DNA of 18,122 bases. Origin: a virus (Duplodnaviria; Heunggongvirae; Uroviricota; Caudoviricetes). A program made the translations under genes and the position numbers. The notes under the pieces are model-generated. The model saw only the letters and a list, made by a program, of their open reading frames with translations, was not told the origin of the DNA and searched no databases. Within the stretch, counting starts at the first letter, position 1. Every line of letters begins with the position of its first letter. The DNA lies in IMG/VR virus record IMGVR_UViG_2778261416_000003, positions 1 through 18,122 of that record; one strand, 5' to 3'. Below are positions 2,092-18,122 of the stretch, piece by piece.

Positions 2092-2173
2092 AATAAAAAA
2101 ATAACCCGAGGGGTGACTCAGGTTATTTGAGGTTTCAGTCTCGGAGAATGCTGTCTCAAGCGAGGTGAATAAT

Positions 2174-3106: not shown

Positions 3107-3108
3107 TT

Positions 3109-3330: not shown

Positions 3331-3342
3331 ATGAGGTGTTAT

Positions 3343-3597
3343 ATGAATATGCAATCCTGCGGTAACAAAATGAATTTATTCGACTCCCTGAACAGCGCGC
3401 GCCGTCTGACCGAACTTGCCGGTGCGGTACTGGAACGCAGTAAGCGCTATCCGCAACGTTTTGCACTGAAAACCACGCCGCCGGTAGGCAACGTGCAGGG
3501 AACCGGTGAAATTGAAATCACCATACAGACCAACGGCCTGCGCCGCCGTGTGAAGGCCACCCGCATCAGCGGCTGCACGGTTTACTGGGAGGTGTGA
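3343..3597 (+). CDS. hypothetical early protein (~84 aa)
   Basis: ORF with GAGGTG 4 nt upstream of ATG 3343 (track start 3331 in the same frame). Confidence 0.5.
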   Translation: MNMQSCGNKMNLFDSLNSARRLTELAGAVLERSKRYPQRFALKTTPPVGNVQGTGEIEITIQTNGLRRRVKATRISGCTVYWEV

Positions 3598-3598
3598 G

Positions 3599-3880
3599 GT
3601 GAAAAAAAATCTCATTGCATGGGCGTGGTCGAGTGGTCTTATTGAGTTTGGTTACGTCCTGCCGGAAGGTGCATTGCCGATAGTTGCCGGAAAGCCTGCC
3701 ACGGTACGGCATGTGATTGAGGTTATGGCGCGTCATGGACGTGATGAACAGGAGCAGTTACTGGTTCCGGGGATACCGGAAGCGGTGACGGAGGAAGAAG
3801 CCTTTAATGCCATGATTCGGTTCTGCCGTGAGGTTAGACGCCGGGTCAGTTATCCAAACAGAACGAGGACCAGAGGATGA
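3599..3880 (+). CDS. hypothetical early protein (93 aa, GTG start)
   Basis: GGAGG about 8 nt upstream of GTG 3599; stop overlaps the next start (ATGA at 3877). Confidence 0.5.
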   Translation: MKKNLIAWAWSSGLIEFGYVLPEGALPIVAGKPATVRHVIEVMARHGRDEQEQLLVPGIPEAVTEEEAFNAMIRFCREVRRRVSYPNRTRTRG

Positions 3881-4149
3881 GTAAAGTCGTACGCATTATT
3901 TTCGAATACAAGGAAGATGTTATCTGCAAAAACTCTGATGGCAGCACGCACAGAGGGGTAAGTCTGGATATACGTTCAACCGGAATAAAGAAGAAAGATA
4001 ATGGACCCGCCATGATTTTTGGGGTGGTTATGCTGGCAGAAAGCAGAAACTTCGCAGAGTTTGTGGCAATGAAAGCCAGTGCATTCATGAAAGACAGAGG
4101 CATGGCTTCCGGGGTTATTAACGGTAATGAATTTAATCAACAGGGGTAA
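3877..4149 (+). CDS. hypothetical early protein, member 1 of a tandem paralogue pair
   Basis: AGAGGA RBS then ATG 3877; N-terminus MSKVVRIIFEY resembles the next gene. Confidence 0.55.
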   Translation: MSKVVRIIFEYKEDVICKNSDGSTHRGVSLDIRSTGIKKKDNGPAMIFGVVMLAESRNFAEFVAMKASAFMKDRGMASGVINGNEFNQQG

Positions 4150-4153
4150 TTCC

Positions 4154-4447
4154 ATGAGCAAAGTACGCGTTATTTTTGAATTTAATCATGTTTCGCATGA
4201 CGAAAAGTTGGCAGGCAATGACTGTGTTGAAGTGCATGAAAAGATTGGAGTGGATGTGAAAACAGAACGTGATACGGATAACAGGCCGACGTCACTCTGT
4301 GACGTTTATGCAAGTATTCTCCAGTATCACAGTCCTGCAATTATTCAGTTTCTCTCAGCGGAATTTCAGGCATCTGCACAGTCTTTTGGAGCGGATGCCA
4401 TCATTAAACGCCACCGCGTGCATAAAGCATCAGGCACACTGCAATAA
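4154..4447 (+). CDS. hypothetical early protein, member 2 of a tandem paralogue pair
   Basis: AGGGG then ATG 4154 (internal Met of track ORF 4127..4447); N-terminus MSKVRVIFEF. Confidence 0.55.
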   Translation: MSKVRVIFEFNHVSHDEKLAGNDCVEVHEKIGVDVKTERDTDNRPTSLCDVYASILQYHSPAIIQFLSAEFQASAQSFGADAIIKRHRVHKASGTLQ

Positions 4448-4458
4448 GGAAAAACAAA

Positions 4459-4989
4459 ATGGCTAAACGCGTTACAAAATTAAAGGCCGCAGCCGAGGCG
4501 GCACCGCAGACCCGGGAAGAAGTCAGCCGTGATATCCGCACCCTGGGAGATATTCAGCGAGAGGCGCTGCGCCTGGAAACGGCGATGAATGACGAAGTGG
4601 CAGAAATCACCGCCCGTTATACGCCGCAGATTGAAAATCTTAAAAAGCAAATCAAAGTGCTTTTTAAAGGGATTCAGGACTGGTGCAAAACCAACCGTGA
4701 TGAGCTGACGAACGGCGGCAAAACCAAAACAGCCAATCTGACCACCGGAACGGTGTCATGGCGGCTGGGAACGCCATCATGCAGCGTCAGCCGTGATGTG
4801 GAAGGTGTGATTGAAATGCTGCGCCGTATGGGGCTTGAGCGTTTCATCCGCACGAAAGAGGAAGTGAACAAGGAAGCCGTCCTGGCGGAGCCGGATGCTG
4901 TGAAAGGCATTGCCGGTATCAAGGTGAATAAAGGCGCTGAAAGTTTTTATGTCGAGCCTTTTGAACAGGACGCCGGACTGAATAAATAA
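4459..4989 (+). CDS. gam: Mu Gam-like host-nuclease inhibitor (Ku-like dsDNA end-binding protein)
   Basis: 176 aa; colinear with Mu Gam (MAK...LKAAAEA, GDIQREALRLETAMNDEVAEIT, ANRDELTNGGKTKTANL, ERFIRTKEEVNKEA, EPFEQ); AAGGA RBS. Confidence 0.9.
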   Translation: MAKRVTKLKAAAEAAPQTREEVSRDIRTLGDIQREALRLETAMNDEVAEITARYTPQIENLKKQIKVLFKGIQDWCKTNRDELTNGGKTKTANLTTGTVSWRLGTPSCSVSRDVEGVIEMLRRMGLERFIRTKEEVNKEAVLAEPDAVKGIAGIKVNKGAESFYVEPFEQDAGLNK

Positions 4990-5134
4990 CACCACATTAA
5001 TCAATTAAATATCACTTCATTTTAATTATGGCGCTCGCGTCAGGGGACTGCTTGCGCCTGAAAACAGAAAATAAGGGTTAAGAAATATGAAATACGTTTA
5101 TATCGTCATTAATAATGTGGTGGGGAAATAAATC

Positions 5135-5668
5135 ATGATTGATGCAAAAGTGCTTGAAGGGGTTAAAAACTGGCTGTGTATTTATGGCCGCCTGACCTGC
5201 GGTGTACTGGCTGAAAAAATGAATATGCCGCCATCCTCCATGGTTTATTTTCTGCGTGATGCGGTTGATGCAGGCGTGCTGACGGAATGTAACGGTTTTT
5301 ATGATATTCCGCGCCCCCGCCCGGTGCAGCCGGTTCGTCGCAAATGCAGCCAGGAATCTGCGGCTGATGATGTTCAGTGGTGCGGCTTCAGAAAATCCCT
5401 GCCATGGATTGAGGGGCATGATATTCCGTCGATGGCGTGGGAATTTGCTCAGGGCGTTCTGACCTGTGAAACCGTTTATGTGGTGGCTGAAGTTGATGAG
5501 CAGGCCATGAAAGAAGGCGTGCCCCAGTTTGTGATGGCGTATATCGACATACGCCTGGGCGTCATTATCTGCGGTTTAAGCGGCTGGAATATCACTGAAC
5601 ATGTTCTGCGCTACCTGATTGTTGACCGGACAGCAGCGCCTGCCGGGATATCTGCGGAGGTGGCGTAA
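5135..5668 (+). CDS. hypothetical early protein with a possible N-terminal winged-helix DNA-binding region
   Basis: 177-aa ORF after a 145-bp AT-rich gap; GGGGA RBS; N-terminal pattern GRLTCGVLAEKMNMPPSSMVYFLRDAVDAGVL looks HTH-like. Confidence 0.55.
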   Translation: MIDAKVLEGVKNWLCIYGRLTCGVLAEKMNMPPSSMVYFLRDAVDAGVLTECNGFYDIPRPRPVQPVRRKCSQESAADDVQWCGFRKSLPWIEGHDIPSMAWEFAQGVLTCETVYVVAEVDEQAMKEGVPQFVMAYIDIRLGVIICGLSGWNITEHVLRYLIVDRTAAPAGISAEVA

Positions 5669-6183
5669 TGTTCTTTAAAACATCAAACCCTTCCGCGCTG
5701 GCTGCGTGGCAAAAATACCAGCAGGACTGCCAGAAAGTTAAGGATGAGGCAAAACGCCTTGAGGCCGTGCTGAATGTTGCGTGCCGGTCGGTATTTGTAT
5801 CCGGTATCAGTGGATTTTACTTTAAGGGACTGCGTTTTACGGAGGACAAATATCCTTTTCATCGCGACTTATGGCGAAAACCGACTGCGTCGAATGGCTG
5901 GAGCTGCACACCGCGCACATCACGTATCCCTAAAACCCTGCGTGTTGCCTCTGATGAACTGAACAGTCTGTGGCGTGAATATTCGCCCGTCACGTATGCC
6001 AGAACCGATGCGCTGTTGTTCTGGTTGGGTATTGATTTCTCGGCAATCCTGTTTGGCCCTGTGAAGTGGTTCTGCGTTGACGATGTGATTTACCTTCAGT
6101 GCGGCGTAAAACCCGCAAAACAGAAAATGACCGAAATACTGTCTGATGAGTTTTATGCTGCTGAAAAGCGAGTCAGGGGGTGA
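5668..6183 (+). CDS. hypothetical early protein (171 aa)
   Basis: GGAGGTGG RBS; start overlaps the upstream stop (TAATG). Confidence 0.55.
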   Translation: MFFKTSNPSALAAWQKYQQDCQKVKDEAKRLEAVLNVACRSVFVSGISGFYFKGLRFTEDKYPFHRDLWRKPTASNGWSCTPRTSRIPKTLRVASDELNSLWREYSPVTYARTDALLFWLGIDFSAILFGPVKWFCVDDVIYLQCGVKPAKQKMTEILSDEFYAAEKRVRG

Positions 6184-6186
6184 TGC

Positions 6187-6738
6187 ATGATGAAATTACA
6201 ACCCATGGGACTAAAAGGTCGCGCCCCCGCTCATGTCCGTCCGTGGACACCTGAAGAAGATGCGCTGCTGATTGCGCTTTATTCATCCACCCCGGTTAAG
6301 GATATTGCTGCCAGAATAAAAAGAACTGTCTGGGCTGTATATAACCGGACTGGTGTATTGCGCAGTTCATACCCGGAGTTACTGAAATATAAACACCCAA
6401 GATTTACACCTGATGAAGATAAGTTTATTCGAAAAAATGCCAGAACAATGACCTGCCAGCAAATGGGAGAATATCTCGGACGTAATAAAGATTCTGTCAG
6501 ATGTCGGGCAGGAATGATTGGTGCTGGATTAACAAAGTGCGGAGAGTTACGCCCCGGCACGCACATATCTGATGATGATGTACGTCTTATACGTGCGCTG
6601 CGTGATTCCGATTACCCACGCCGTCTGTCATTCCGGGAAATTGGCGAAAAGTTTGGAATATCTGAACATTCTGCTCACGCAGTTTATTACCGTCGCCGGA
6701 CTGCCGAGGACGCTGTATTACGGGAGTTAACGCCATGA
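6187..6738 (+). CDS. hypothetical early protein with three tandem HTH-like repeats
   Basis: 183 aa; repeated module W/F-T-P-E/D-E-D ... I-A/G-x-x-I/L-x-R-T/N/S (WTPEEDALLIALY..., FTPDEDKFIRKN..., ISDDDVRLIRAL...SFREIGEKFGIS); AGGGGG RBS. Confidence 0.6.
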   Translation: MMKLQPMGLKGRAPAHVRPWTPEEDALLIALYSSTPVKDIAARIKRTVWAVYNRTGVLRSSYPELLKYKHPRFTPDEDKFIRKNARTMTCQQMGEYLGRNKDSVRCRAGMIGAGLTKCGELRPGTHISDDDVRLIRALRDSDYPRRLSFREIGEKFGISEHSAHAVYYRRRTAEDAVLRELTP

Positions 6739-7064
6739 TAACGACCTTATTTGTTGAATCAGATGAACCTCTTGTGTGTGCCGCCGGAATGCCGCTCTGT
6801 GGCGGAACGCTGACCGGTGTTTATTTCGGGGATTTACGCGGTTATCCCTGGCATTCACTGAATGATGCTTTCCCACCTGATATGGAGGCTGCCGTGCTGA
6901 TTGTTCAGTATGGTCACCGTCAGGAGCTGCGCATCGGCCATATGGGGTATGAAGGCTTTTTTGTTGATGAAGAAACCGGAGCCTGCCTTGAAGATGAAGA
7001 CGGACAGGTGACGCACTGGTGTCATATTTCGGCTTTACCGGAATTACGGGAGGTGAATGCGTGA
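6735..7064 (+). CDS. hypothetical early protein (109 aa)
   Basis: ATGA overlap with the upstream stop; GGGAG RBS. Confidence 0.5.
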   Translation: MITTLFVESDEPLVCAAGMPLCGGTLTGVYFGDLRGYPWHSLNDAFPPDMEAAVLIVQYGHRQELRIGHMGYEGFFVDEETGACLEDEDGQVTHWCHISALPELREVNA

Positions 7065-7411
7065 GAAGTTATATTGATAATGAAAAGCTGGAGACAATAA
7101 GCGACTGTCTTAGCTTGCTGGCAAAAATCAAAGAAACTATTGAAGAGATTAAATTTCAGCTTGAATACGCACCATGTGGCGATGATGCATGGCGTAATGC
7201 TGCCAGAAAAGCACTGGCTGTCTTTCAGAAACAACGCCGGGCTGTTGAATACCGCCTTGCTGTATTGCGCCAGGAGGAAAAGGAAAGAAATATAAGACGT
7301 CATGAACGCGTTAATGATTTCCTTGTTCGTGAATTAAAAGAGCGCGTGCCGGAGTCGGTGTTTTTTGAATGTGAGGCTATAGCCCGTAGCAAAGCACTGG
7401 AAACAGATTAA
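7061..7411 (+). CDS. hypothetical early protein (~116 aa, GTG start), probably coiled-coil
   Basis: GGAGG upstream of GTG 7061, which overlaps the upstream stop (GTGA); charged heptad-like sequence. Confidence 0.5.
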   Translation: MRSYIDNEKLETISDCLSLLAKIKETIEEIKFQLEYAPCGDDAWRNAARKALAVFQKQRRAVEYRLAVLRQEEKERNIRRHERVNDFLVRELKERVPESVFFECEAIARSKALETD

Positions 7412-7426
7412 GCAGGCAGGTGAATA

Positions 7427-7735
7427 ATGAGTATTGAATTAAGATCGTCTTATGAATATCGCAAAATCCTTATCGCCGGAGGCATGAAACCGGAAGATGC
7501 AGAGAAATTCGTTTCTTTTATGGATAAAGAATGTGACAAGCGGGATATGCCAGAAATTATTATGGATGACATGATTCTGGATTCAGCCGTGGCGTTAAGT
7601 CCGTTATGGATTGTGCATACTCTTGCGGAAATAGCTAAAAGAAGTGACAAGCAGGCGGCTGTCGCCGCCCTGCGATTACTGGCTGAATTAAGTTGTTCAG
7701 TCAATCCCAATACGTTCTTTGACGAACCTGGTTAA
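7427..7735 (+). CDS. hypothetical early protein (102 aa)
   Basis: AGGTGA RBS then ATG 7427. Confidence 0.5.
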   Translation: MSIELRSSYEYRKILIAGGMKPEDAEKFVSFMDKECDKRDMPEIIMDDMILDSAVALSPLWIVHTLAEIAKRSDKQAAVAALRLLAELSCSVNPNTFFDEPG

Positions 7736-8107
7736 CATTGATTTGGTAACTTCTTTAATTAGATCAAATGGTGCGTCTGTAAACTCCTTTTTGATTCTTT
7801 CAAGGATTGGTTTTTTTCTCAGGGCGTTAGCTAAATCATGCCCCTGCTGGGTAAGCATAATGGGCGTGTTTCTGAAACCAACGCCCAGAGAATGGAAAAA
7901 GAAACCAATATATTTGGGTGTTTCTGACTGCATATCACCATTAACAATTGAGCCATTATCAGCGAGAAGCATAAGATGAAAAACTTTTTTATCCTTTTCC
8001 TCTCCTTCTGCCTCAGCCATGCCCAGATCCTGTAGTGTAAGGAAAGGTGTTTCAGCATCCTGAAAAGTTGTGAGAATACTTAATACTTCATCGTAATCTA
8101 TTTTCAT
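7697..8107 (-). CDS. hypothetical protein (136 aa), antisense moron at the early/late junction
   Basis: Only sizeable minus-strand ORF inside the + strand early operon; visibly AT-richer than flanks; AAAGG RBS upstream of ATG 8107 on the minus strand; 3' end overlaps the 7427..7735 gene convergently by ~39 bp. Confidence 0.5.
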   Translation of the reverse strand: MKIDYDEVLSILTTFQDAETPFLTLQDLGMAEAEGEEKDKKVFHLMLLADNGSIVNGDMQSETPKYIGFFFHSLGVGFRNTPIMLTQQGHDLANALRKKPILERIKKEFTDAPFDLIKEVTKSMLTRFVKERIGID

Positions 8108-8171
8108 ATCGATACCTTTAGTTTTATCCGGGCGGCGTTGCCATGCCGCCTGTTGTTACGGAGACACGATA

Positions 8172-8592
8172 ATGAATCGCGCTTCCCTGATTACCTTAAT
8201 ACATGTCGCAAAACGCGATCTACAGCTTGACCATGAGACCTACACATCCGTACTACTGGCAGCCACCGGCAAACCCAGTTGCCCGTTCAGAACGGTTTTC
8301 TGCCACCGTGCGTGGCTGGTTCCGGGATGATGGCCGGTTATGGGATGTCAATCTGCTGACCGGTGTTTCAGCCCTGCGTTTCGGTATAGAACAGACTGAA
8401 CTGCTGGTCTGTCAGGTGGAGTTTTTACTTGATGAACATAACGGGGAAGTCACCCGGCTGGTACTGGCACCGCGTGACGGCTTTATCGTTCCGGCAGAGC
8501 CGGACAGTAAGGGCCGGGGTGGTTCCGGTGACGATGTTGATGCCTTTATTCGCCAGCAGATGAAAAAACAGGGGATCAGCTTTGATGAATGA
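8172..8592 (+). pseudogene. GemA (Mu gp16)-like gene that changes frame, or a deletion-fusion remnant
   Basis: GGAGA RBS then ATG 8172; frame-0 ORF MNRASLITLIHVAKRDLQLDHETYTSVLLAATGKPSC... resembles the DUF1018/GemA N-terminus from memory but stops at 8330; the only long ORF continues in the +1 frame (8203..8592), has no RBS, and ends overlapping the gp45-like start. Confidence 0.35.
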
Positions 8593-9196
8593 TGAAGTGT
8601 TCAGCCGCCTGATTGCCCCGGTAACGCGCGGTATTCGCCTGTTGTTTGGCCGGGGCGTTCTGACCGGCACACATGACGAACTGAAAATGCAGAATGTGCA
8701 GCTCACCGGCATGGACGGCGAAACCTTTGATGATGTGGAGCGTCCCCAGCAGTACGGGCAGATCAGCGTTCCCCTGCCGGGTGCGGAAACCTTTTTTGCC
8801 TGTCTGGGCGGACAGCGGGATCAGACTGTGGTGCTTGTGGTGGAAGACCGGCGCAGCCGCCCGACCGGACTCACAGCCGGAGATACGGGGGTGTATCACC
8901 ATGAGGGGCACCGGATACGGTTAACAAAGGATGGTCGCATTATTGTGACATGCAAAATGCTGGAGATTTACGCCGATGAGGGGATGCGGGTGGATACGCC
9001 GGAGGCCACCTTTACGGGCAATGTGACGGTGGATAAAAACCTGCATGTTAAGGGTAATTTCGTGCTTGATGGTACAGGTAAATCAGACGGGCTGTTCACG
9101 ATGTCTGATGCCGTTATTGCCGGGATCACCTATTCCGGCCATGTGCATCAGGATAACGGCAAAGGCAGTAAGACAGGAGCGCCGGAGAATGGCTGA
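8585..9196 (+). CDS. baseplate assembly protein V-like (Mu gp45 family)
   Basis: ~203 aa; position directly upstream of gp46/47/48 homologues; gpV-like N-terminal region; ATG 8585 overlaps the upstream stop. Confidence 0.8.
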   Translation: MNDEVFSRLIAPVTRGIRLLFGRGVLTGTHDELKMQNVQLTGMDGETFDDVERPQQYGQISVPLPGAETFFACLGGQRDQTVVLVVEDRRSRPTGLTAGDTGVYHHEGHRIRLTKDGRIIVTCKMLEIYADEGMRVDTPEATFTGNVTVDKNLHVKGNFVLDGTGKSDGLFTMSDAVIAGITYSGHVHQDNGKGSKTGAPENG

Positions 9197-9626
9197 TATT
9201 GCAATTGTATGGGATCAGGGGTGCGGTTCGCTGCAACTGAACGGTGCCGACCTGCTGACGGATGACAGTCTGCTGACGGCCGTTCTGATTTCGCTGTTTA
9301 CTGACCGCCGGGCGCTGGCATCGGATGAAATCCCTGACGGTACGCGTGACCGCCGGGGATGGTGGGGAGACAGTTTTCGCCCGCGTCCCATTGGCTCCCG
9401 TCTGTGGCTTCTCCGCCGGGAAAAAACGCTGGCCTCGGTGATAAGCCGTGCCCGTGCTTACGCGGATGAGGCGCTGGGCTGGCTCAGTCAGGATGGCGTG
9501 GCGTCATCCGTGGTCTGTCATGCAGAACGTGTGGGACACGCGCGGCTGGCGCTTTCGGTGCGCATAACCCTGCCTGATGGTTCAGTGAGGCCCATGATTT
9601 TTTATGCTGATCTTAAGGGGGAGTAA
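9189..9626 (+). CDS. Mu gp46-like baseplate protein
   Basis: ~145 aa from ATG 9189 (internal Met of track ORF 9045..9626, overlapping the gp45 stop); GWWGD motif; synteny. Confidence 0.8.
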   Translation: MADIAIVWDQGCGSLQLNGADLLTDDSLLTAVLISLFTDRRALASDEIPDGTRDRRGWWGDSFRPRPIGSRLWLLRREKTLASVISRARAYADEALGWLSQDGVASSVVCHAERVGHARLALSVRITLPDGSVRPMIFYADLKGE

Positions 9627-10708
9627 TGCCTTATCAGCCTTTACCGCTGGCACAGTTAATCACGCAGACACAGCAGGATATCAGCCAGCGCCTGCCCGGC
9701 TCGCAGCCGGGTGTGAATGAAACCACCCTGAATGCCATTGCTTACGCTCAGGCAGGGTTATCTGCTCAGGAGCATGAGCATCTGGCCTGGATTGCGCGTC
9801 AGATCATCCCGACCGAAGCCGATGAAGCCGAACTGCTGAAACACTGTGCATTCTGGGGCGTCATGCGTAAGCCTGCCTCTCGGGGGGACGGGCCGGTTCA
9901 GCTGATGCTGACCACGGATGCGGGGATCAAGGAAGGTGTGCTTCTCCAGCGAAGTGATGGCGTGGTTTACCGTATCACCACCTCCCTGACCGGTAAGGCC
10001 GGTACGCTGAATGTCAGTGTGGAAGCCGAAAGTGCCGGTCGTGCGGGGAATGCCCCGGCAGGGACAAAACTGACATTTATCACACCGCAGGCGGGGATCA
10101 ACCAGACGGCCACGGTGACCGGAACGGGGATCACCGGTGGTGCGGATGTGGAAACCGTGCCGGAGCTGCTTTCCCGTCTGGTTTTCCGGGTGCAGAATCC
10201 ACCGTCCGGCGGCACGCAGTATGATTTTGAACGCTGGGCGCGTGAAGTGCCGGGCGTGACGCGGGCATGGTGCCGCCCGGAATGGCCGCAGGCGGGCAGC
10301 GTGGGGGTAACGTTTGTTCAGGATAATAACCCGGACATTTTCCCCGGTGACGGTGATGTTCAGCGGGTGGCGGATTATATCCGCAGTCATGATGATCCGG
10401 CGACCGGCCAGCCTGTCGGACAGCCTCTGGGGCCGACGGTGACCGTGTTTAAACTGACCAATAAGCCGGTGCCCTTCAGCATCAGGATCATCCCGAAAAC
10501 ACCGGAGAATCAGGCGGCCGTAAAACAGGCGCTGACCGACCTGTTGTATAACGAATCCCGGCCCGGCGGTCTGGTTCTGCCGTCGTCTTTCTGGCGGGCG
10601 GTGGCAGGGGTGAAAAATCTGGAGGATTTTGAAGTGCGCAGTCCGCTGACGTCAGTTCAGGCGGGAGACAGTGAGCTGCTGACGGTAGGAGAAATCACAT
10701 GGCTGTAA
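9626..10708 (+). CDS. baseplate J-like protein (Mu gp47 family)
   Basis: 360 aa; GGGGGAG RBS; TAATG overlap with gp46; size and position match Mu gp47 / P2 J. Confidence 0.8.
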   Translation: MPYQPLPLAQLITQTQQDISQRLPGSQPGVNETTLNAIAYAQAGLSAQEHEHLAWIARQIIPTEADEAELLKHCAFWGVMRKPASRGDGPVQLMLTTDAGIKEGVLLQRSDGVVYRITTSLTGKAGTLNVSVEAESAGRAGNAPAGTKLTFITPQAGINQTATVTGTGITGGADVETVPELLSRLVFRVQNPPSGGTQYDFERWAREVPGVTRAWCRPEWPQAGSVGVTFVQDNNPDIFPGDGDVQRVADYIRSHDDPATGQPVGQPLGPTVTVFKLTNKPVPFSIRIIPKTPENQAAVKQALTDLLYNESRPGGLVLPSSFWRAVAGVKNLEDFEVRSPLTSVQAGDSELLTVGEITWL

Positions 10709-11259
10709 CCCTGACCCCGCATCAGCGCGCCCTGTTGCAGTTACTGCCTGACGGGCTGGCATGGGACAAGCGTCCGTCATCCGTACTGGCATCATTATGT
10801 CTGGGCCTCAGTCATTCGACAGCGCGTGTATCCTGGACGGGTAAACAGCTGCTTGCCGAGCGTTTCCCTGACACGTCGCGCCTGCTGCTGGAAGACTGGG
10901 AGCGTTATCTCGGGCTTCCCGAGTGTGATATGGCCGGAGCCACCCTCACGGAGCGACAGCGTTATGCCGGAAATAAATACCGGATGAAGCCCTCGCTGAA
11001 CCGTGAATTTTATATCCGGTTTGCGGCGGAGTTTGGTTATCAGATTGACATTCAGCCCTCACCGGATTCGCAGTGGGTCAGTATTGTCACGATTAACAGT
11101 GAAACCGGCTACCGGAATATGAATGTGCTGGATGATATTCTCACGCCGCTGCGTATTTATGAAGGCGGTGCGCTGGAATGTATTCTGAACCGTTATAAGC
11201 CTGCATGGCAGACGTTTATTTACGTTTATGCAAACAGCCATGAAGAGGAGACTATTTAA
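10699..11259 (+). CDS. Mu gp48-like tail protein (DUF2313 / YmfQ-like)
   Basis: 186 aa; AGGAG RBS; lies between the baseplate J-like gene and the tail fibre as in Mu and e14. Confidence 0.75.
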
Positions 11260-12140
11260 TGTTTCATGTTGATAATAATTCCGGCGTGGCGAATATGCCT
11301 GCGCTGGCACCGGCGCAGAGTAATACCACCACCTGGTTTACCGAAGGTGACGGACAAAAAGGTATCAGCTGGATTGGTCAGGACTGGCTGAATATTCTCC
11401 AGGCCGAACTGCTGAATATTCTGGCTGAAGCCAGTATTCAGCCGGATAAGGCGCAGTTAAACCAGCTTACGCTGTCCATTAAAGCCATTATCGCTGCGAA
11501 TGCCTTTTCCCGGAAAAATAACCTGAAAGAAATTGCTGATGCCGGTGCGGAGGCCCAGCGTCTGGCCCGTGGTTATCTTGGTCTGGGGACGCTTGCCACA
11601 AAAAACAGTCTTGGTCCCGCTGACATTAATGCCCTGGCGAAGGATCAGAATCTCGCCGACCTGGAGAATAAGGGAACCGCCCGTAATAATCTGGATGTTT
11701 ACAGCAAAAGCGAAGGTGATAACCGTTACCTGCGCAGGGAGCAGAACGGCGCAGACATTCCGGATAAAGGGGCTTTTATCGATAACGTCGGTTTACGGGA
11801 AACGGTAAACAGGGCGGCGAATGCCCTGCCATCGGACGGCACCGCCGTTGCCGCGAACAGGCTGGCAAATGCCCACACAATTAATGGTGTTCCCTTTGAC
11901 GGGACGCAGGATATCACTATCTCATCAGGAACAGTAACCGCCATAAGACTGGGGTCGGTGACCGCACATATGCCCGGAACATGGGAAAGCTGGGATCTGA
12001 ATCTGGGGGGCGGCAATGTTCTTACCGGAATTAAAGTACAGGATGTCGGTAAGAATACGGCAGATAACGTCGGCGGCGTGTATTACCGGCCGTTGCAGTA
12101 TCTGTTAAATGGAGCATGGGTGACGGCTGCAAGTATATAA
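11259..12140 (+). CDS. tail fibre protein, constant N-terminal part plus variable C-terminal part (current orientation)
   Basis: 293 aa; tail-fibre-like N-terminus; C-terminal [18 protein letters not shown] resembles the P2 H C-terminus; a gix-like site lies inside the gene at 11776..11801. Confidence 0.85.
11776..11801. repeat. gix-like recombination site, left (inside the tail-fibre gene)
   Basis: TTATCGATAACGTCGGTTTACGGGAA, about 22/26 identical to the reverse complement of the Mu gix sequence as remembered; the inverted repeat begins at its centre. Confidence 0.7.
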
Positions 12141-12149
12141 TGATATTCA

Positions 12150-12173
12150 GAAGGCCTTCCGGCCTTCTTTATT
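12150..12173. terminator. intrinsic terminator hairpin between the convergent fibre and assembly genes
   Basis: GAAGGCC-TTCC-GGCCTTC (7-bp stem, 4-nt loop) followed by TTTATT on the + strand. Confidence 0.6.
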
Positions 12174-12693
12174 ACTGTGGCTGCTCAGGCCATTTAATGG
12201 CGTTAAATTCAGCTTCTGTTTTAATGGCGGGTAGTTCCATTTTCTTCACCTGACTGATGTATGCCATCCATTGGGTAAGTGCTGCTCTGTCTTCATCGCT
12301 GATGGTGCCCAGTTGTAGCTCCGTTCTCCAGTCATTAATTTTTTCATATGCCTGATTAAGATATGACTGGCGCATTGCTTCCAGTTTTCTTGCGTAGTTA
12401 ACCGGAATACGGGAGATTATGCCATTATCAAACTTCCAGTTTCCTGAAATATCCGTGCCTTCAGGGAGTTCATCGACCTCAACCACAGAAAACCCCGCAG
12501 GATACAGCGCCGAGGCGTCCTGTGATATTGAGCAGATAACGCCGCTGTCAGGTGTTATGCAAAGTTTATATTTTTTGGTGAATAATGGCAGGGATTCGTA
12601 GAAATCCTTACCATCTTCACTCTGGAAATACTGAACATTATTACCATATGGCATATTTTCAGGATAATAACGGGTTATATTTTTTAGTTCCAT
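12172..12693 (-). CDS. tail fibre assembly protein (Tfa / Mu U' / P2 G family)
   Basis: 173 aa; SEDGKDFYE...DASALYPAGFSVVEVDELP and C-terminal WPEQPQ match Tfa-family proteins such as e14 TfaE as remembered. Confidence 0.85.
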   Translation of the reverse strand: MELKNITRYYPENMPYGNNVQYFQSEDGKDFYESLPLFTKKYKLCITPDSGVICSISQDASALYPAGFSVVEVDELPEGTDISGNWKFDNGIISRIPVNYARKLEAMRQSYLNQAYEKINDWRTELQLGTISDEDRAALTQWMAYISQVKKMELPAIKTEAEFNAIKWPEQPQ

Positions 12694-12744
12694 AAAATCC
12701 TCCTGGAAATAAATCTGTTTTAAAATATATTATTTACTGACTAT

Positions 12745-13107
12745 TTATAACTGAGATACCGTAATCCATGTACCTCCGACTAATTTTTGCAGGGGTCTGA
12801 ATGCTATAAAATCGTTTGAAGCATCAACTTTACTGTCAATCTGCAGGCCTGCCATAACATTACCGTACGCAGAGTAATATGCCCCACCGTACATTACCTG
12901 CCTGTTCTCTGCTCCCAGCCTGATATCCTGGATATATCGGGAATCCGCATCCTGCTGTGTTATACCAGAAGTGATGTTTATGTCCTGCGTCCCGTCAAAG
13001 GGAACCCCATTAATATTTCTTGGGGTGGCGAGTCTATTCGCGGCAACGGCGGTGCCGTCCGATGGCAGAGCATTCGCCGCCCTGTTTACCGTTTCCCGTA
13101 AACCGAG
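12745..13107 (-). CDS. alternative tail-fibre C-terminal cassette (S'v-like); start-less, expressed only after inversion
   Basis: Minus-strand frame from the gixR centre to stop at 12745 reads [24 protein letters not shown]...FRPLQKLVGGTWITVSQL, sharing the first ~23 aa and the C-terminal pattern with the + strand fibre; followed on the minus strand by the Tfa gene. Confidence 0.75.
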   Translation of the reverse strand, partial: LGLRETVNRAANALPSDGTAVAANRLATPRNINGVPFDGTQDINITSGITQQDADSRYIQDIRLGAENRQVMYGGAYYSAYGNVMAGLQIDSKVDASNDFIAFRPLQKLVGGTWITVSQL

Positions 13108-13118
13108 GTTTTCAGGAA
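13093..13118. repeat. gix-like recombination site, right
   Basis: TTCCCGTAAACCGAGGTTTTCAGGAA, about 22/26 identical to the Mu gix sequence TTCCTGTAAACCGAGGTTTTGGATAA as remembered. Confidence 0.75.
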
Positions 13119-13183
13119 AGCCAGGATTAACTCTGTTTTATTCCTCATGCGACAATTCCGGCTTTTTATAATAAGGAAATCGT

Positions 13184-13756
13184 ATGCTGATTGGGTATAT
13201 CAGGGTGTCAACAAATGACCAGAATACGGCGCTACAAAGAAATGCGCTGGAATGTGCAGGATGTGAGCTGTTTTTCGAAGACAGAATAAGCGGTAAGACA
13301 AGGGAGCGTCCCGGACTTAAACGCGCATTAAAGCGACTCCGGCCAGGGGATACCCTGCTGGTCTGGAAACTGGATCGCCTTGGACGCAGTATGCAGCACC
13401 TTGTCCTTTTAACAGAAGAACTCCGGCAACGCGGCGTTAACTTCCGCAGCATTACGGACAATATTGATACATCCACTCCCATGGGACGTTTCTTTTTCCA
13501 TATAATGGGCGCGCTGGCGGAAATGGAGCGGGAACTCATTATTGAACGTACACGCGCGGGTCTTGCTGCTGCCCGTGCTCAGGGGCGTCATGGCGGCAGA
13601 CCTCAGAAACTGACAGAGAAAGAGCGGGAGCAAATCGCCCGTTTGCTGGCTAATGGCGAGTCCCGTAAACAAATCGCACTGATATTTGATATTGGCCTTT
13701 CCACCCTTTATCGTTATTTTCCTGCCTCACCAGCTCCGTCACCAAAAGTACCGTGA
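13184..13756 (+). CDS. gin: serine DNA invertase (Gin/Pin/Hin family)
   Basis: 190 aa; MLIGYIRVSTNDQN catalytic-serine N-terminus, WKLDRLGRSM, GRFFFHIMGALAEMERELIIERT, C-terminal HTH; near-colinear with Pin/Gin; AAGGA RBS. Confidence 0.95.
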   Translation: MLIGYIRVSTNDQNTALQRNALECAGCELFFEDRISGKTRERPGLKRALKRLRPGDTLLVWKLDRLGRSMQHLVLLTEELRQRGVNFRSITDNIDTSTPMGRFFFHIMGALAEMERELIIERTRAGLAAARAQGRHGGRPQKLTEKEREQIARLLANGESRKQIALIFDIGLSTLYRYFPASPAPSPKVP

Positions 13757-13765
13757 CGCTTTTTT
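13737..13765 (+). terminator. candidate intrinsic terminator at the end of gin
   Basis: CGTCAC ... GTGACG (6-bp stem, 10-nt loop) followed by C plus T6 (13760..13765). Confidence 0.45.
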
Positions 13766-13841
13766 GAATTTCCGCAAAACACATATTTTTCAGCGGTCGC
13801 TATTCTGACTCTGTTTAATTCAGAAACAGGCAGAAAAGACG

Positions 13842-15896
13842 ATGTCAGACTCCAAGTGGAAAATGCTCTCCGCCATGCCCGGAGAGTTTTCAGTCAAGGT
13901 TGCCGGTGGCACGGTGGCATTTATTGAAAGCCCTTTCCGCCCTTCGGGTAATAAAGGGGGGATCACCTTCGCAGACTGCGTGATCCGCTTCAGCACGAAA
14001 GAGCCATTATGGGTAATGCCGGTATCCGGTAATCCCAGTGCAGAAATCACCAGTTCAGGCGTGACTGGCATCATTCCAATCACATCTGACGTGGCCGGAA
14101 CGCTCACGCCCTCCGACTGGAATGCACCGGATAACGCCGGGCCTTCCGGTAGCACGAATGGCAGCAGTTCAAAGCCGGAATATTACTTTGTTGTCATTCT
14201 CGCGGGTCAGTCAAATGGCATGGCCTACGGCGAGGGGCTGCCGTTACCGGATTCGTTTGACCGCCCGGACCCACGCATTAAGCAACTGGCACGCCGCAGT
14301 ACGGTAACGCCCAACGGTACGTCGTGTACATACAACGACATCATTCCGGCAGACCACTGCCTGCATGATGTTCAGGATATGAGCGGGATAAACCACCCGA
14401 AAGCTGATCTGGCAAAAGGCCAGTACGGGACTGTCGGTCAGGGGTTGCATATTGCCAAAAAACTGCTTCCCTATATCCCACAGAATGCCGGGATACTTCT
14501 GGTGCCCTGTTGTCGTGGCGGGTCAGCATTCACCACTGGAGCCGACGGCTCATTCAGTGAGGCCAGCGGTGCTTCCGCTGATTCTTCACGCTGGGGGGCC
14601 GGTAAACCTCTGTATCAGGACCTGGTAAGCCGCACCAAAGTCGCGCTGGCGAAAAACCCGAAAAACAAACTTCTGGCTGTGGTCTGGATGCAGGGAGAGG
14701 CAGACCTTGCCTCAGGAAGCCAGCAGCATAATAGTTTATTCACGGCCATGGTTCAGCAGTTCAGAACTGACCTGGCTCCGCTTGCTGCGCAGTGCGTGAG
14801 TGGAAATGCCACCACGGTGCCGTGGATTTGCGGTGATACCACGTATTACTGGAAAAACGCTGGCACCGATAAATATGAGGCAGTATACGGTGGCTACAAA
14901 GGCAAGGAAGCACAGAAAATTTTCTTTGTACCGTTCCTGACGGATGAGAATGGACAGAGCACGCCAACGAATGCTCCGGCGGAAGACCCGGATATTGTGG
15001 CTGTCGGGTATTACGGTGCAGCATCCCGAACCCAGGGCAGTTTTGTTTCGACACAGCGTGACAGCCATTTCAGCTCATGGGCACGCAGGGGCGTCATTTC
15101 AGACCGTCTGGCCTCAGCTATTATGCTCCATGCAGGGCGCACGGCTGAACTGATGCGCGGGCAGACCGTGACACCACCGGATGAGAAGCCGTCACCTGAT
15201 ACACCATCAAAACCGTCCACGCCACCCGCAGACACCACGACGATGAGTACGCTATTTGCTTACCGGGCATCTGAGTCTGAAGGACGGTTGACACCACAGG
15301 GTTGGGCTGCCGGAGGTGGCAAGGCTCAAATCGTGGATGATGCCGGAGCCAGCGGGGGTAAGGCAATGAAACTGACCAAGGAAACAGGAAGAGCCCCCTG
15401 GTACCTTGAGCATGATGCTGGTAATGGTGCGGACCTGCTGGGTAAAGGTGGTCTTGTCAGTTGTCGTTTTAAACTCGATGGCGCGCTTACGGCTAATCAG
15501 TACGCACTGGCGCTGTACTGGCCGGTTTCTGCCCTGCCGCAAGGGGTTACTCTGGAAGGAAATGCCGGTCATAACCTGCTGGCATCGTTCTACGTACAGA
15601 GCGATGCCACAGACCTTAACGTGATGTATCACAAAGGAAACACGGCGCAGAACACGAAGCTGGGGTCATTCGGCGCATTTAATAACGAATGGCATACGCT
15701 GGGCTTCCGTTTTGCCGGTAACAACAGTATTGAGGTGACACCGGTCATTGATGGTAAGGACGGGACACCATTCATGCTGTCGCAGTCTCCGGTCGGCACG
15801 TTTACGGCAGACAAGTTGCGCGTGACCGATATCACTAAAAATGCGACTTACCCGGTACTGATTGACAGTATCGTGGTGGAAGTGAATAACGCGTAA
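13842..15896 (+). CDS. prophage-type sialate O-acetylesterase (NanS-p-like; SGNH/SASA esterase core, Pro/Ser/Thr linker, C-terminal lectin-like domain)
   Basis: 684 aa; esterase-core motif ILAGQSNGMAYGEGLPLPD, then VPCCRGGSAF and WMQGEADL; PPDEKPSPDTPSKPSTPPADTTT linker; location after tail-fibre genes as for NanS-p in Stx prophages; start codon uncertain. Confidence 0.75.
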   Translation: MSDSKWKMLSAMPGEFSVKVAGGTVAFIESPFRPSGNKGGITFADCVIRFSTKEPLWVMPVSGNPSAEITSSGVTGIIPITSDVAGTLTPSDWNAPDNAGPSGSTNGSSSKPEYYFVVILAGQSNGMAYGEGLPLPDSFDRPDPRIKQLARRSTVTPNGTSCTYNDIIPADHCLHDVQDMSGINHPKADLAKGQYGTVGQGLHIAKKLLPYIPQNAGILLVPCCRGGSAFTTGADGSFSEASGASADSSRWGAGKPLYQDLVSRTKVALAKNPKNKLLAVVWMQGEADLASGSQQHNSLFTAMVQQFRTDLAPLAAQCVSGNATTVPWICGDTTYYWKNAGTDKYEAVYGGYKGKEAQKIFFVPFLTDENGQSTPTNAPAEDPDIVAVGYYGAASRTQGSFVSTQRDSHFSSWARRGVISDRLASAIMLHAGRTAELMRGQTVTPPDEKPSPDTPSKPSTPPADTTTMSTLFAYRASESEGRLTPQGWAAGGGKAQIVDDAGASGGKAMKLTKETGRAPWYLEHDAGNGADLLGKGGLVSCRFKLDGALTANQYALALYWPVSALPQGVTLEGNAGHNLLASFYVQSDATDLNVMYHKGNTAQNTKLGSFGAFNNEWHTLGFRFAGNNSIEVTPVIDGKDGTPFMLSQSPVGTFTADKLRVTDITKNATYPVLIDSIVVEVNNA

Positions 15897-15901
15897 GCAG
15901 G

Positions 15902-15943
15902 ATAAAAAAATGCCGCCGGTAAGGGAAAACAAGAAACCGGCGG
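15902..15943 (-). terminator. minus-oriented intrinsic terminator
   Basis: GCCGCCGGT ... ACCGGCGGC (9-bp stem, 15-nt loop); on the minus strand the hairpin is followed by T7 (+ 15903..15909). Confidence 0.45.
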
Positions 15944-15992
15944 CAAAAAGATCGTTATATCCAAAGCAAAAAATGCAGTGCACCTTTTTACC
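15903..15992 (-). ncRNA. candidate small RNA (~90 nt) divergent from the small membrane-peptide gene
   Basis: Minus-strand TTGACA (+ 16025..16020), 15-nt spacer, TAATAT (+ 16004..15999), then the terminator above; no ORF. Confidence 0.25.
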
Positions 15993-16040
15993 TAACAGAT
16001 ATTACCGGTGTCAACACCATGTCAATAATTGGGAGGGATA

Positions 16041-16223
16041 ATGACATTTTTACAGCTTATTTTATTGTATTTCTGCACGGCAGTATGTGCGTTATATCTG
16101 GTGAGTGGTGGTTATAAGGCCATCAGAAATTATGTTCGCCGCAAAATTGAGGACGCAGCAGCTGAAAAACTCAGTAAAACAGCGCAGGTAACTCCGCTCC
16201 CAAAAGACCCGACCCAGCCCTGA
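16041..16223 (+). CDS. small membrane peptide (60 aa, one predicted TM helix, basic C-terminal tail)
   Basis: GGGAGGG RBS 4 nt upstream of ATG 16041; hydrophobic stretch FLQLILLYFCTAVCALYLVSGG; terminator immediately downstream. Confidence 0.45.
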   Translation: MTFLQLILLYFCTAVCALYLVSGGYKAIRNYVRRKIEDAAAEKLSKTAQVTPLPKDPTQP

Positions 16224-16238
16224 TTGCAGGGCTTTATT
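16216..16238 (+). terminator. intrinsic terminator overlapping the stop codon of the membrane-peptide gene
   Basis: AGCCCTG-ATTG-CAGGGCT (7-bp stem, 4-nt loop) followed by TTATT. Confidence 0.5.
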
Positions 16239-16258
16239 CCCGCATAAGGAGGATATAC

Positions 16259-16513
16259 ATGCCAGAAATTAAAGGCACCGTCACTGAAGACCTGGTAAAA
16301 CAGGCACTGTATTCCGGTGAAGTAAATAAGTTGCTGAAAGCGCAGGTCCGCAAGGATTTTGAGGCACAAATCGACACTTACGTTGATGAAGTGCTGGCAA
16401 AACTTATTGGGCCAGCAGTTGCGGCCAGTGATGCTGATAATGAGCCGAAAACCGACGCGCAGCCAGAGCAACCAGACCCGGCTCAGCCCGGAACTGACAG
16501 TACCATGATGTAA
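16259..16513 (+). CDS. hypothetical acidic protein (84 aa)
   Basis: AGGAGG RBS 6 nt upstream of ATG 16259; hairpin CAAACCGG ... CCGGTTTG (16519..16546) downstream. Confidence 0.5.
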   Translation: MPEIKGTVTEDLVKQALYSGEVNKLLKAQVRKDFEAQIDTYVDEVLAKLIGPAVAASDADNEPKTDAQPEQPDPAQPGTDSTMM

Positions 16514-16680
16514 CAATACAAACCGGTGGTGTCCTCTGCCGGTTTGACACTAATGAAAACATCTTTGCCGCTATCCAGCCATATGTAATCGCTGGATAGT
16601 ATTTCGTATTCAGAAATATAGCTGCTTATGGAGCAGTCAATCCTGCTTCCCCATCCGGGCAGGCAAATGAACCGGTATCA

Positions 16681-16974
16681 TTAGTCCGATTCACGCTTTT
16701 GTAGAATCGTTCCCAGAATGCTATACAGCTCATTAGCCTGTTGCTCCATCATTGAGACGGAGGCTATACGGTGCAAAGTGATTTCAGGAGGTGGCACACC
16801 TCCATCTTCTTGCTGTGGAGGAAAAACATAAGATTTAATAAAAAAGTTGAAGCATATGAACTCTCCCGCACTCGAACTGTATTTGCAGGCATCTGAATAA
16901 TCGGAAAAATAATCATTATAGATTTCCGCATTTTCAATCATTTTTCGATTTCTCGTCGTTACATGATTGTCCAT
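16681..16974 (-). CDS. hypothetical protein (97 aa), divergent from com-mom
   Basis: AAGAGG RBS 5 nt upstream of ATG 16974 on the minus strand; AT-rich; downstream hairpin CTATCCAGC ... GCTGGATAG at 16567..16598. Confidence 0.45.
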   Translation of the reverse strand: MDNHVTTRNRKMIENAEIYNDYFSDYSDACKYSSSAGEFICFNFFIKSYVFPPQQEDGGVPPPEITLHRIASVSMMEQQANELYSILGTILQKRESD

Positions 16975-17097
16975 AGCAGCCTCTTACGCTGGCAATTAAC
17001 CAATTGACTTCTATAAATTAGTTGATTTGTTTGCTTTGCGGTATTCAAATGTACAATCATTCAGCACTTATGCGTTACAGCACCGTTTAAAATTAGT

Positions 17098-17190
17098 GAT
17101 CAAACTCATAAATTTTCGCTAATGACATTTCGTGTTATTTGTTGTATCAATTAAATAAATCAAATCGATCGTTTTTGTCGATCGATTGAG
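17098..17190 (+). promoter_or_regulatory. com-mom upstream regulatory region with three GATC (Dam) sites and a palindrome
   Basis: GATC at 17098..17101, 17167..17170 and 17180..17183; palindrome AATCGATCG-N7-CGATCGATT (17163..17187); Mu mom is known to be controlled by Dam methylation of three upstream GATC sites. Confidence 0.4.
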
Positions 17191-17230
17191 TGATAAAGAT
17201 ATCAACAACAAAGCAGGAGGTTATGCGGCC

Positions 17231-17431
17231 ATGTATCGAAACATACGGTGCCGACATTGTAACAAGCTACTGGCACGAGCCAGCTTCAGTTATCTGGAAG
17301 TTAAATGTCCGCGCTGTAAAACCCTCAATCAAATCACATCTCAGAGCGCCACAGAGCACCCCACATACACAAGGAAATCCTGTCGTGGGGAACAGAAAGC
17401 AAGTTACATCCCGTATCATCAGCACGCCTGA
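17231..17431 (+). CDS. com: Com-like zinc-finger translational activator of mom
   Basis: 66 aa; CxxC...CxxC (CRHC ... CPRC); AGGAGG 10 nt upstream of ATG 17231; overlaps the mom reading frame as in Mu. Confidence 0.75.
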
Positions 17432-18122
17432 ACTTATTCACTATAACGACAATATCGTCGGTTATGGCTCCCGTGAGTTACGGGTTGAGACAATAAGTTG
17501 CTGGCTGGCCCGGCTGGTCGTCGTCAATAAACATTACAGCCATCGTTTCGTAAATAATTCCTACCTTCATCTGGGCATATTTTCAGAACGGGAGCTGGTT
17601 GGCGTAATGCAATGGGGTTATGCCCTTAATCCAAACAATGGTGCACGCGTCGTAACTGGCACGCAGAACCGCGAATATATGGAGCTTAACCGGTTATGGC
17701 TGCATGACTGTATGCCGAGAAACTCCGAATCAAGGGCAATCAGTTACGCGCTCAAACTAATCAGACAACTTTATCCGCAGGTGCAGTGGGTTCAGTCGTT
17801 TGCAGATGAGCGTTGTGGCTGTCTTGGTGTCGTGTACCAGGCAAGCAATTTTGATTATGTAGGCAGTCATGAAACAACATTCTATGAACTTGATGGCGAG
17901 TGGTATCACGAGATTTGCAAGAATGCAATCAAACGAGGAGGACAGCGAGGTGAACATCTGCGGGCTAATATCGACAGAGCCAGTGTTCATAAATTCCGTC
18001 AGTTTCGTTACATCCGGTTTCTGGACAAGAGAGCCAGAAAACGCCTTAACACAAAGCTATTCAAAGTCCAGCCTTACCCAAAACCACAAACAGTTAAAAC
18101 TGGTTTGAAAGAGAGTGAATGA
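17385..18122 (+). CDS. mom: Mom-like DNA modification protein; start uncertain (ORF open from 17190)
   Basis: Long ORF in a different frame overlapping the 3' half of com; GTG 17385 has AGGA 9 nt upstream; rightmost-gene position after gin and com as in Mu. Confidence 0.7.

Follow-up and report, generated by a model that had tools for sequence, protein, structure and literature searches.

Does the AT-rich right end of a Mu-like prophage carry one module of three small genes, or pieces of cargo of separate origin that lie side by side? The question is raised by positions 15897–17097 of an 18,122-nucleotide stretch of Caudoviricetes DNA (IMG/VR record IMGVR_UViG_2778261416_000003, positions 1 to 18,122; this whole stretch is hereafter called the window), where three small genes lie between an esterase gene and com. 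A sequence-only reading had grouped them into a single cargo block resembling a toxin-antitoxin (TA), superinfection-exclusion or abortive-infection module. We propose, with a probability of roughly 0.6, that the region consists instead of two independent pieces of prophage cargo, namely the 3' part of an esterase cassette (15897–16546) and a separate slot (16547–17230). The order of the cassette is a NanS-p-like esterase gene, an opposite-strand gene resembling those of small RNAs (sRNAs), DUF1378, DUF826 and a closing hairpin. In lambdoid and Shiga toxin (Stx) phages the cassette belongs to the late operon and immediately precedes the class II holin gene; in the Mu-like prophage it has been placed in the gin-com gap by recombination.

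The three open reading frames (ORFs) are where the sequence-only reading had put them, at 16041–16223 (plus strand, 60 amino acids), 16259–16513 (plus strand, 84 amino acids) and 16681–16974 (minus strand, 97 amino acids). Its picture of a small peptide with one transmembrane segment beside a small acidic protein held good, the former being basic (isoelectric point (pI) 9.3) and the latter helical (pI 4.2), as did the strong ribosome-binding site (RBS) of the 84-residue gene (AAGGAGG, 7 nt upstream of 16259). That none of the proteins belongs to a recognizable family was borne out for the third, an orphan, but not for the other two. The single-pass 60-residue protein, whose gene has a GGGAGG RBS, is a member of the DUF1378 family (Pfam PF07125, 109.4 bits, E 9.4e-32, gathering score 25 bits, residues 1–58 on positions 1–58 of a 59-position profile; PHROG 494, E 1.3e-32). 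The 84-residue protein belongs to DUF826 (PF05696, 58.7 bits, E 6.4e-16, gathering score also 25 bits, residues 1–57 on positions 1–58 of 75; PHROG 311, E 4.9e-28 over the full length). Both are catalogued families, DUF1378 with matches in 309 phage records, and identical sequences are annotated in many RefSeq genomes. What the window holds is a known but uncharacterized cassette in a second, already sequenced backbone, and not a new kind of system.

DUF1378 begins with an uncharged N-terminus of three residues, continues with a conserved transmembrane segment (LLYFCxxVCxLYLxSGGY) and then has five basic residues in ten positions; the pI of its C-terminal part is 9.8. By the positive-inside rule, this basic juxtamembrane segment suggests an N-out/C-in topology. 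DUF826 has a conserved long helix in its N-terminal part and a disordered, acidic, proline-rich tail. In its AlphaFold model, helices at residues 10–17 and 20–50 reach a predicted local distance difference test score (pLDDT) of ~90, residues 51–84 stay below 55 and the mean is 69. A sequence-profile search of the PDB with DUF826 returned only noise (E 0.057), and a Foldseek search of the PDB with the model returned no matches, as is expected of a single long helix. A further observation concerns one protein (P0078) in which the first ~35 residues of DUF826 are fused to a com-overlapping frame (TTKQEVMR...VIWK); its sequence points to a prophage variant in which the remainder of DUF826 and the whole slot would have been deleted.

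The annotated neighborhood of one RefSeq genome identifies the window as the late right-hand end of a Mu-like transposable prophage of Escherichia coli. There, Mu-type head, tail and baseplate genes are followed by the tail-fiber gene, an inverted tail-fiber-assembly gene, gin, the gene of a 684-residue "DUF6645 domain-containing protein", DUF1378, DUF826, a minus-strand hypothetical gene, com, mom and the chromosome. Positions 15897–17180 (1284 bases) occur with 100% identity in 14 complete RefSeq E. coli genomes. The chromosomal sites of sister prophages in different strains are unrelated, as expected of a transposable phage. When the block was compared with a phage collection, megablast gave no match, and a search in distant mode matched only two Stx phage records, within their regions labeled "inserted Mu-like phage". 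The designation as cargo was confirmed and applies to all the DNA from gin to com, which is accessory in the Mu-like prophage. Literature searches on locus tags including Z1467, ECs1209 and L0106 retrieved only unrelated papers, and no paper naming both nanS-p and Mu-like was found in the literature search.

Which of the genes travel together was assessed in two samples of IMG/VR loci. The first comprised the best 80 of 289 loci anchored on DUF1378, with neighbors scored by tblastn, and the second the best 80 of more than 593 loci anchored on the holin, 70 of which had sufficient upstream sequence to be assessed. DUF826 followed DUF1378 in 80/80 loci of the first sample, and the esterase gene lay directly upstream of DUF1378 in 78/80, the remaining 2 ending at a contig edge. 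Twenty-six of these loci were Mu-like, with gin upstream and com-mom downstream, and 54 were lambdoid, with class II holin and lysozyme genes downstream. The 70 assessable holin-anchored loci divided into 28 with the order esterase-DUF1378-DUF826-holin, 34 with esterase and holin but without the pair, and 8 without esterase and pair; 0/70 had one or both genes of the pair but no esterase. Across the two samples, which overlap, the esterase precedes the pair in all 106 assessable loci. DUF1378 and DUF826 are thus an obligate pair: the two genes are inseparable, the unit as a whole is optional, and to date it has been found only downstream of an esterase gene.

The same arrangement is found in named phages. 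According to a survey of stx flanks, Stx2a phages have ORFs of the DUF826 and DUF1378 families in the interval from nanS-p to the holin gene S (PMC10462455). In Stx2 phage II, stx2AB is followed by the esterase gene, DUF1378, an ORF of unannotated family, S and R, and the order nanS-p, DUF pair and S was also confirmed in Sakai Sp6 and in a lambdoid prophage of a pig isolate. The window has esterase, DUF1378 and DUF826 in this order, on one strand and with short spacers, but it lacks the lambdoid late-operon site between Q/stx and holin S, the cassette being flanked by gin and com-mom.

These gene orders bear directly on the idea of a single toxin-antitoxin, superinfection-exclusion or abortive-infection module, in which the membrane peptide would be the effector and would be joined by one or two acidic partners. 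A basic single-pass peptide next to two acidic proteins, encoded by small genes with an RBS each in the accessory part of a prophage, is what such a module might look like. However, the pair goes with the upstream esterase, and the minus-strand gene is absent from, or swapped for unrelated genes in, sister prophages that keep DUF1378 and DUF826; in the 54 lambdoid loci the pair occurs without the orphan. The lambdoid pair, moreover, lies in a late lytic operon, which is atypical of a defense gene expressed in the lysogen. Comparison of the three proteins with defense and TA families in PADLOC, Pfam and NCBIfam gave no significant profile match, and the sole PADLOC match (PbeC, E 0.0076, 12.9 bits, 51 residues of a 643-position model) was taken as noise. 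One module of three genes consequently appears very improbable.

The history of the cassette can be read from its head, the gene of a NanS-p-like sialate O-acetylesterase (13842–15896, plus strand), which lies outside the block singled out by the sequence-only reading. Its SASA (Pfam, E 1.5e-13) and DUF6645 (E 7.4e-68) domains form the architecture of the prophage sialate O-acetylesterase NanS-p, and it matches PHROG 143 with E 3e-296. A sliding identity profile of the window against two lambdoid copies and one divergent Mu-like copy revealed that the esterase gene and cassette are a mosaic. The first ~100 codons of the esterase gene (13842–14141) have no lambdoid NanS-p counterpart (7–42% column identity) and are peculiar to the Mu-like lineage; given their position after the tail-fiber genes, virion attachment is one possibility for this N-terminus. 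Over 14442–15441 the window is 86–100% identical to the lambdoid copy of ZH49 in most 100-bp windows (72% in one) and is mostly nearer to it than to the Mu-like copy of CI5, and 14942–15141 shares 98–100% of its nucleotides with the pig-isolate lambdoid prophage. The esterase C-terminus, the spacer and the transmembrane segment of DUF1378 (15442–16141) remain at 80–94% nucleotide identity in all comparisons, and past ~16141 similarity persists at the protein level only, up to the end of DUF826. This mosaic pattern indicates that Mu-like and lambdoid prophages have recombined repeatedly through the esterase gene. A conservation of the esterase-DUF1378 spacer above that of coding sequence was considered and rejected, since its sliding identity (0.80–0.85) about equals that of the adjacent conserved coding block. 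On its left side, the cassette adjoins a region of the invertible type (11259–13756), where a tail-fiber gene, an inverted tail-fiber-assembly gene, an inverted partial tail protein gene and gin resemble the G segment of Mu.

Within the cassette, the spacer between the esterase gene and DUF1378 contains a feature that the sequence-only reading had not listed, a candidate sRNA gene on the minus strand (15904–16012). It has a TTGACA -35 box (~16012–16007), a TAAAAA -10-like box (~15988–15983), a predicted start at ~15978, a covarying terminator stem-loop (15945–15911) and a U7 tail (15910–15904), which together predict an RNA of ~75 nt. The hairpin at 15911–15945 is the strongest of the block (10 bp, -20.1 kcal/mol and z-score -6.1 on the minus strand). 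For the predicted 75-nt RNA the folding energy is -23 kcal/mol (z -4.6); its 5' part is U-rich and open, and its terminator is strong. Across 30 distinct esterase-DUF1378 spacers, the TTGAC of the -35 box, 15–25 nt from the DUF1378 RBS, is invariant, and so is the A-run (AAAA) of the TAAAAA box, 17–18 nt downstream of TTGAC. The body is strongly variable, with a GC-rich stem and a 15–22-nt loop that contains the indels, and compensatory changes occur in 3/5 consensus pairs of the terminator stem. The element is exactly antisense to the esterase-DUF1378 intercistronic RNA, facing nucleotides -137 to -63 of the 5' region of DUF1378. Most likely it is transcribed with sigma-70 and yields an Hfq-type sRNA of ~75 nt comparable to PasA and PasC, which are Hfq-dependent prophage sRNAs of the enteropathogenic E. 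coli strain E2348/69, documented as acting in trans on many targets (PMC8550237). PasA is encoded at 743499 to 743415 of NC_011601 and PasC at 1290909 to 1290832, both on the minus strand (PMC8550237 Table S6).

Two other identities for the element were discarded. A 43-residue ORF at 15910–16041 is broken in Sakai by a 7-nt indel in the hairpin loop. The Rfam family Esr41 (RF02676) scored 22.2 bits (E 0.65) against a gathering score of 102, with the likeness limited to the terminator and U-tail, and Esr41 is encoded on SpLE1, away from any esterase (PMC5286369). A comparison of the transcribed body with PasA and PasC by blastn-short found nothing, and an nhmmer profile built from 25 variants recovered the esterase-proximal copy in prophage PP2 only (E 0.0045), neither PasA nor PasC. 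The same profile also matches the PasD2 promoter upstream of an esterase gene in E2348/69 (L008 219–278, E 0.024); the layout of that promoter, TTGAC-N17-TTAAAAA, suggests that the promoter type is common to prophage Pas sRNAs. Some lambdoid loci (L164, L169) have two tandem sRNA-like elements between esterase and holin, which agrees with the two PasA transcripts that have been reported in E2348/69 ("major 85 nt / minor 236 nt").

An antisense gene in front of a small membrane peptide raises the possibility of a system resembling type I TA, in which a DUF1378 toxin made by read-through from the esterase gene would be held down by the divergent sRNA, as in tisB/istR-1 and zorO/orzO. In all 30 distinct variants a 60-residue hydrophobic peptide with a strong RBS is indeed preceded by the divergent sRNA-like gene, and E2348/69 PP2 retains the PasA gene beside an RBS and 9-codon remnant at the site where DUF1378 was lost. 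However, the element family also occurs in esterase-holin loci without DUF1378 and DUF826, DUF826 always accompanies DUF1378, and a conserved cytoplasmic segment sets the latter apart from most type I toxins. There is no evident promoter or 5' untranslated region (UTR) dedicated to a toxin, and the trans action of PasA and PasC on many targets (PMC8550237) also speaks against such a toxin. We consider this possibility quite improbable. The commonest esterase-holin spacer, of 157 bp, has no sRNA-like element.

For the pair itself, the two-cargo reading suggests the following course of events. A scan revealed neither a sigma-70 plus-strand promoter for DUF1378 nor a terminator between the esterase gene and the pair, and we therefore infer that DUF1378 and DUF826 are translated from the esterase transcript, each probably through its own strong RBS. 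DUF1378 would take up an N-out/C-in orientation in the inner membrane, inserting in the manner of a YidC-type small membrane protein, and its basic cytoplasmic segment would dock the acidic long helix of DUF826. The resulting membrane-anchored two-protein complex would act at the inner membrane during phage late gene expression. Obligate pairing, fixed order, a 35-nt spacing and charge complementarity all speak for such a heteromer. The ratio of nonsynonymous to synonymous substitution rates (dN/dS) against CI5 is 0.14 for DUF1378 (0.24 against Sakai, with dS saturated), 0.085 for DUF826 and 0.36 for the orphan, whose frame is kept (97 versus 100 codons), which indicates purifying selection on all three small genes. 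Because the pair is under this selection in Mu-like phages that have no adjacent lambdoid holin, its activity does not depend on that lysis cassette. As a weakly held guess, it may serve as an envelope-level accessory in superinfection exclusion or in the modulation of lysis timing.

A more specific form of the latter would make the two proteins antiholin-like regulators of the timing of pinholin/signal-anchor-release (SAR) endolysin lysis, carried along with the esterase in the Mu-like phage. All 54 lambdoid loci whose downstream sequence suffices indeed have a class II holin gene within ~75 nt after DUF826, and the same adjacency within the late operon is found in the 28 holin-anchored loci that have the pair. 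Mu itself uses a SAR endolysin, and the pair would be comparable to the membrane-plus-cytoplasmic pair RI/RIII of T4. On the other side, the pair is missing from 34 holin loci with the esterase and from 8 without it, almost no part of DUF1378 is exposed to the periplasm, and in the 26 Mu-like loci the pair is far from any lysis gene and is still under strong purifying selection (dN/dS 0.09–0.14). A dedicated lysis-timing function is in our view unlikely.

The esterase offers another partner, which the pair might localize at the membrane, release or regulate there. The pair was never seen without a directly upstream esterase gene, on two unrelated phage backbones, and the recombined block of the Mu-like phage brings the catalytic and C-terminal parts of the esterase together with both small genes. 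Yet the esterase does without the pair in 34/62 esterase-holin loci and in PP2 and PP5 of E2348/69, no mechanism is evident in the sequence, and the linkage could be purely historical. That the pair assists the esterase is unlikely.

Several points weigh against parts of the proposal that we favor, two independent cargo pieces with a membrane-anchored pair in the first. Both locus samples, being the best matches of larger sets, are biased to close E. coli relatives, and they share some contigs, so that they are not independent. The TAAAAA -10 box of the sRNA-like gene fails a consensus scan, and its transcribed body, seed included, has no detectable similarity to PasA or PasC. Co-transcription of the esterase gene and the pair is our inference, and the putative complex draws only on charge, co-occurrence and one AlphaFold model with a mean pLDDT of 69. 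No homology assigns a function to DUF1378 or DUF826. The strict dependence on the esterase is explained no less well by an esterase-related role than by a generic envelope role, and it may reflect history alone if the pair spreads only through esterase recombination. Confidence in any one role is low; envelope (exclusion or lysis timing), esterase-related, type-I-TA-like and hitch-hiking roles are not distinguished by the present evidence.

The second piece of cargo is a hypervariable, AT-rich slot between the cassette and com (16547–17230, 39% GC), which contains the orphan and hairpins at 16571–16599 and 16622–16636. From the stop codon of DUF826 to the start of com, the 26 Mu-like loci measure 463–933 bp, and the slot is occupied by small ORFs of at least three unrelated sets. 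These are the 97-residue gene, as here; a 66–78-residue plus-strand ORF with 68–76-residue and 99-residue minus-strand ORFs; and a Cys-rich 64-residue ORF with a 99- or 137-residue minus-strand ORF. The slot ORFs of sister prophages had no family match. Among the ORFs in such slots (L002 7650–8460, L021 4470–5090 and L027 4470–5404) is a 99-residue minus-strand ORF that adjoins com, the place taken by the orphan in the window. This slot beside mom looks like a hot spot for accessory genes.

The orphan (16681–16974, minus strand) encodes an acidic 97-residue protein (pI 4.7). Its direction of transcription leads away from com-mom, and its RBS, AAGAGG, is found 7 nt upstream of 16974. RefSeq starts it at M12 (86 residues), but in the most divergent homologue (P0010, of CI5 type) that residue is Thr and M1 is retained; the conserved start is therefore that of the 97-residue form. 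A word-index search recovered only near-identical homologues from E. coli and Shigella, in 14 clusters, and an exhaustive HMMER search of 1.84 billion representatives gave 3 matches at 93–96% identity (1 full-length, 2 partial). At least 1000 contigs, from E. coli and Shigella sonnei, carry the exact sequence. The protein had no match in Pfam, PHROG, PADLOC, NCBIfam or by PDB profile, and tblastn against phages found nothing; its AlphaFold model (pLDDT 52.7) was unusable. We conclude that the orphan is a real, lineage-restricted and dispensable gene, separate from the DUF1378/DUF826 unit.

The spacer between the orphan and com has a further feature, a perfect 9-bp inverted repeat at 17163–17187 (AATCGATCG-N7-CGATCGATT) with two GATC sites. 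It lies in a spacer of 34% GC, ~45–65 nt before com begins (17231), and GATC occurs at 17098, 17167 and 17180. In Mu, Pmom is under Dam/OxyR control, and we take the repeat to be reminiscent of that Dam/OxyR-controlled mom promoter.

The stem-loops and the base composition of the block, both pointed out in the sequence-only reading, were examined as well. Three inverted repeats are present and are moderately better than shuffled sequence; none passes a simple terminator scan, and terminator-like sites are not enriched in the region (7 found versus 5.4 +/- 2.3 expected). The first repeat (16216–16233, plus strand, 7 bp, -13.8 kcal/mol, z -2.2) covers the DUF1378 stop codon. Equally good folds arose in 6/200 shuffles, and the stem-loop is confined to Mu-like variants, the lambdoid counterparts having minimum free energies of -1 to -4 kcal/mol. 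The second (16519–16546, plus strand, -16.7 kcal/mol, z -3.5) closes the cassette. A hairpin just after the DUF826 stop codon was present in 19/20 distinct variants, built from several unrelated stem sequences and often followed by a T-rich tail, and nucleotide similarity between the window and a FORC_069-type prophage stops at 16545, right after it. It is probably a conserved 3' cassette boundary, serving as a terminator or 3'-end stabilizer. The third, in the variable slot (16571–16599), can form on both strands (-15.3 kcal/mol on plus and -17.0 kcal/mol on minus, z -3.6 and -4.5), and the simple scan flagged a terminator-like site after the orphan (16636–16622, minus strand). AT-richness proved real but modest, with 43.6% GC in the block versus 50.7% in the window and 8% of 1201-bp windows as low. 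It is due to the right half of the block, the orphan having 39.8% GC and the orphan-com spacer 34.4%, whereas the DUF826 gene is at backbone level (50.2%).

A large proportion of Stx phages have DUF1378 and DUF826 in the stretch that separates their Shiga-toxin/NanS-p genes from their lysis genes. Their transplantation to Mu-like prophages shows the pair to be self-contained, selected without the lambdoid lysis cassette and tied to the esterase, which narrows the hypotheses and offers a cleaner genetic background. With the sRNA-like gene, the PasA/PasC type would gain a new seed variant and a new phage backbone, and in Mu-like phages of E. coli the variable slot beside mom is a candidate accessory locus. 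A bolder, rather improbable view would unite the sRNA with DUF1378 and DUF826 in one regulated membrane-effector unit and make the slot beside mom an unrecognized defense or anti-defense locus, with the orphan as one of its cargoes. If so, an antisense RNA would gate a small membrane protein and its acidic adaptor in exclusion, abortive infection or holin-independent release, and this regulated unit would travel with NanS-p in Stx and Mu-like phages.

The locus can be compared with four known systems. With tisB/istR-1, zorO/orzO and shoB/ohsC it shares, in architecture only, a small hydrophobic peptide and a divergent, complementary upstream sRNA; it differs from them in that the peptide has no promoter or UTR of its own, DUF826 is always paired with it, and the sRNA family also occurs without the peptide. 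PasA and PasC (EcOnc51/52-type) are closer. Like them, the element here lies on the opposite strand directly downstream of the esterase and before the next gene, with its terminator abutting the esterase stop codon, and it has the TTGACA-N17/18-xAAAAA promoter layout with a common CTGT motif, a large-loop terminator followed by a U-run and a length of ~75–85 nt. Unlike in E2348/69, where DUF1378 is lost, the element here is flanked by DUF1378. As place and promoter match and the body does not, we call it PasA/PasC-like in architecture and position only.

The closest relative of the cassette is the interval from nanS-p to S in Stx and lambdoid phages (933W, Sakai Sp6 ECs_1527-1530, Stx2 phage II p145-p156). 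It has the same order and the same DUF families, 80–94% nucleotide identity over the esterase C-terminus, the spacer and the DUF1378 transmembrane segment, and a hairpin after DUF826. Unlike that interval, the cassette here sits in a Mu-like backbone with no Q, stx or holin nearby, and has a different esterase N-terminus of ~100 residues and an additional hairpin over the DUF1378 stop codon. The backbone, in turn, shares with the right end of phage Mu the order of gin recombinase, Com zinc-ribbon and Mom in a randomly inserted prophage, and the clustering of GATC sites upstream of com. In Mu we take the gin-com spacer to be short; unlike Mu, the window has ~3.4 kb of cargo between gin and com, made up of the esterase cassette and the variable slot.

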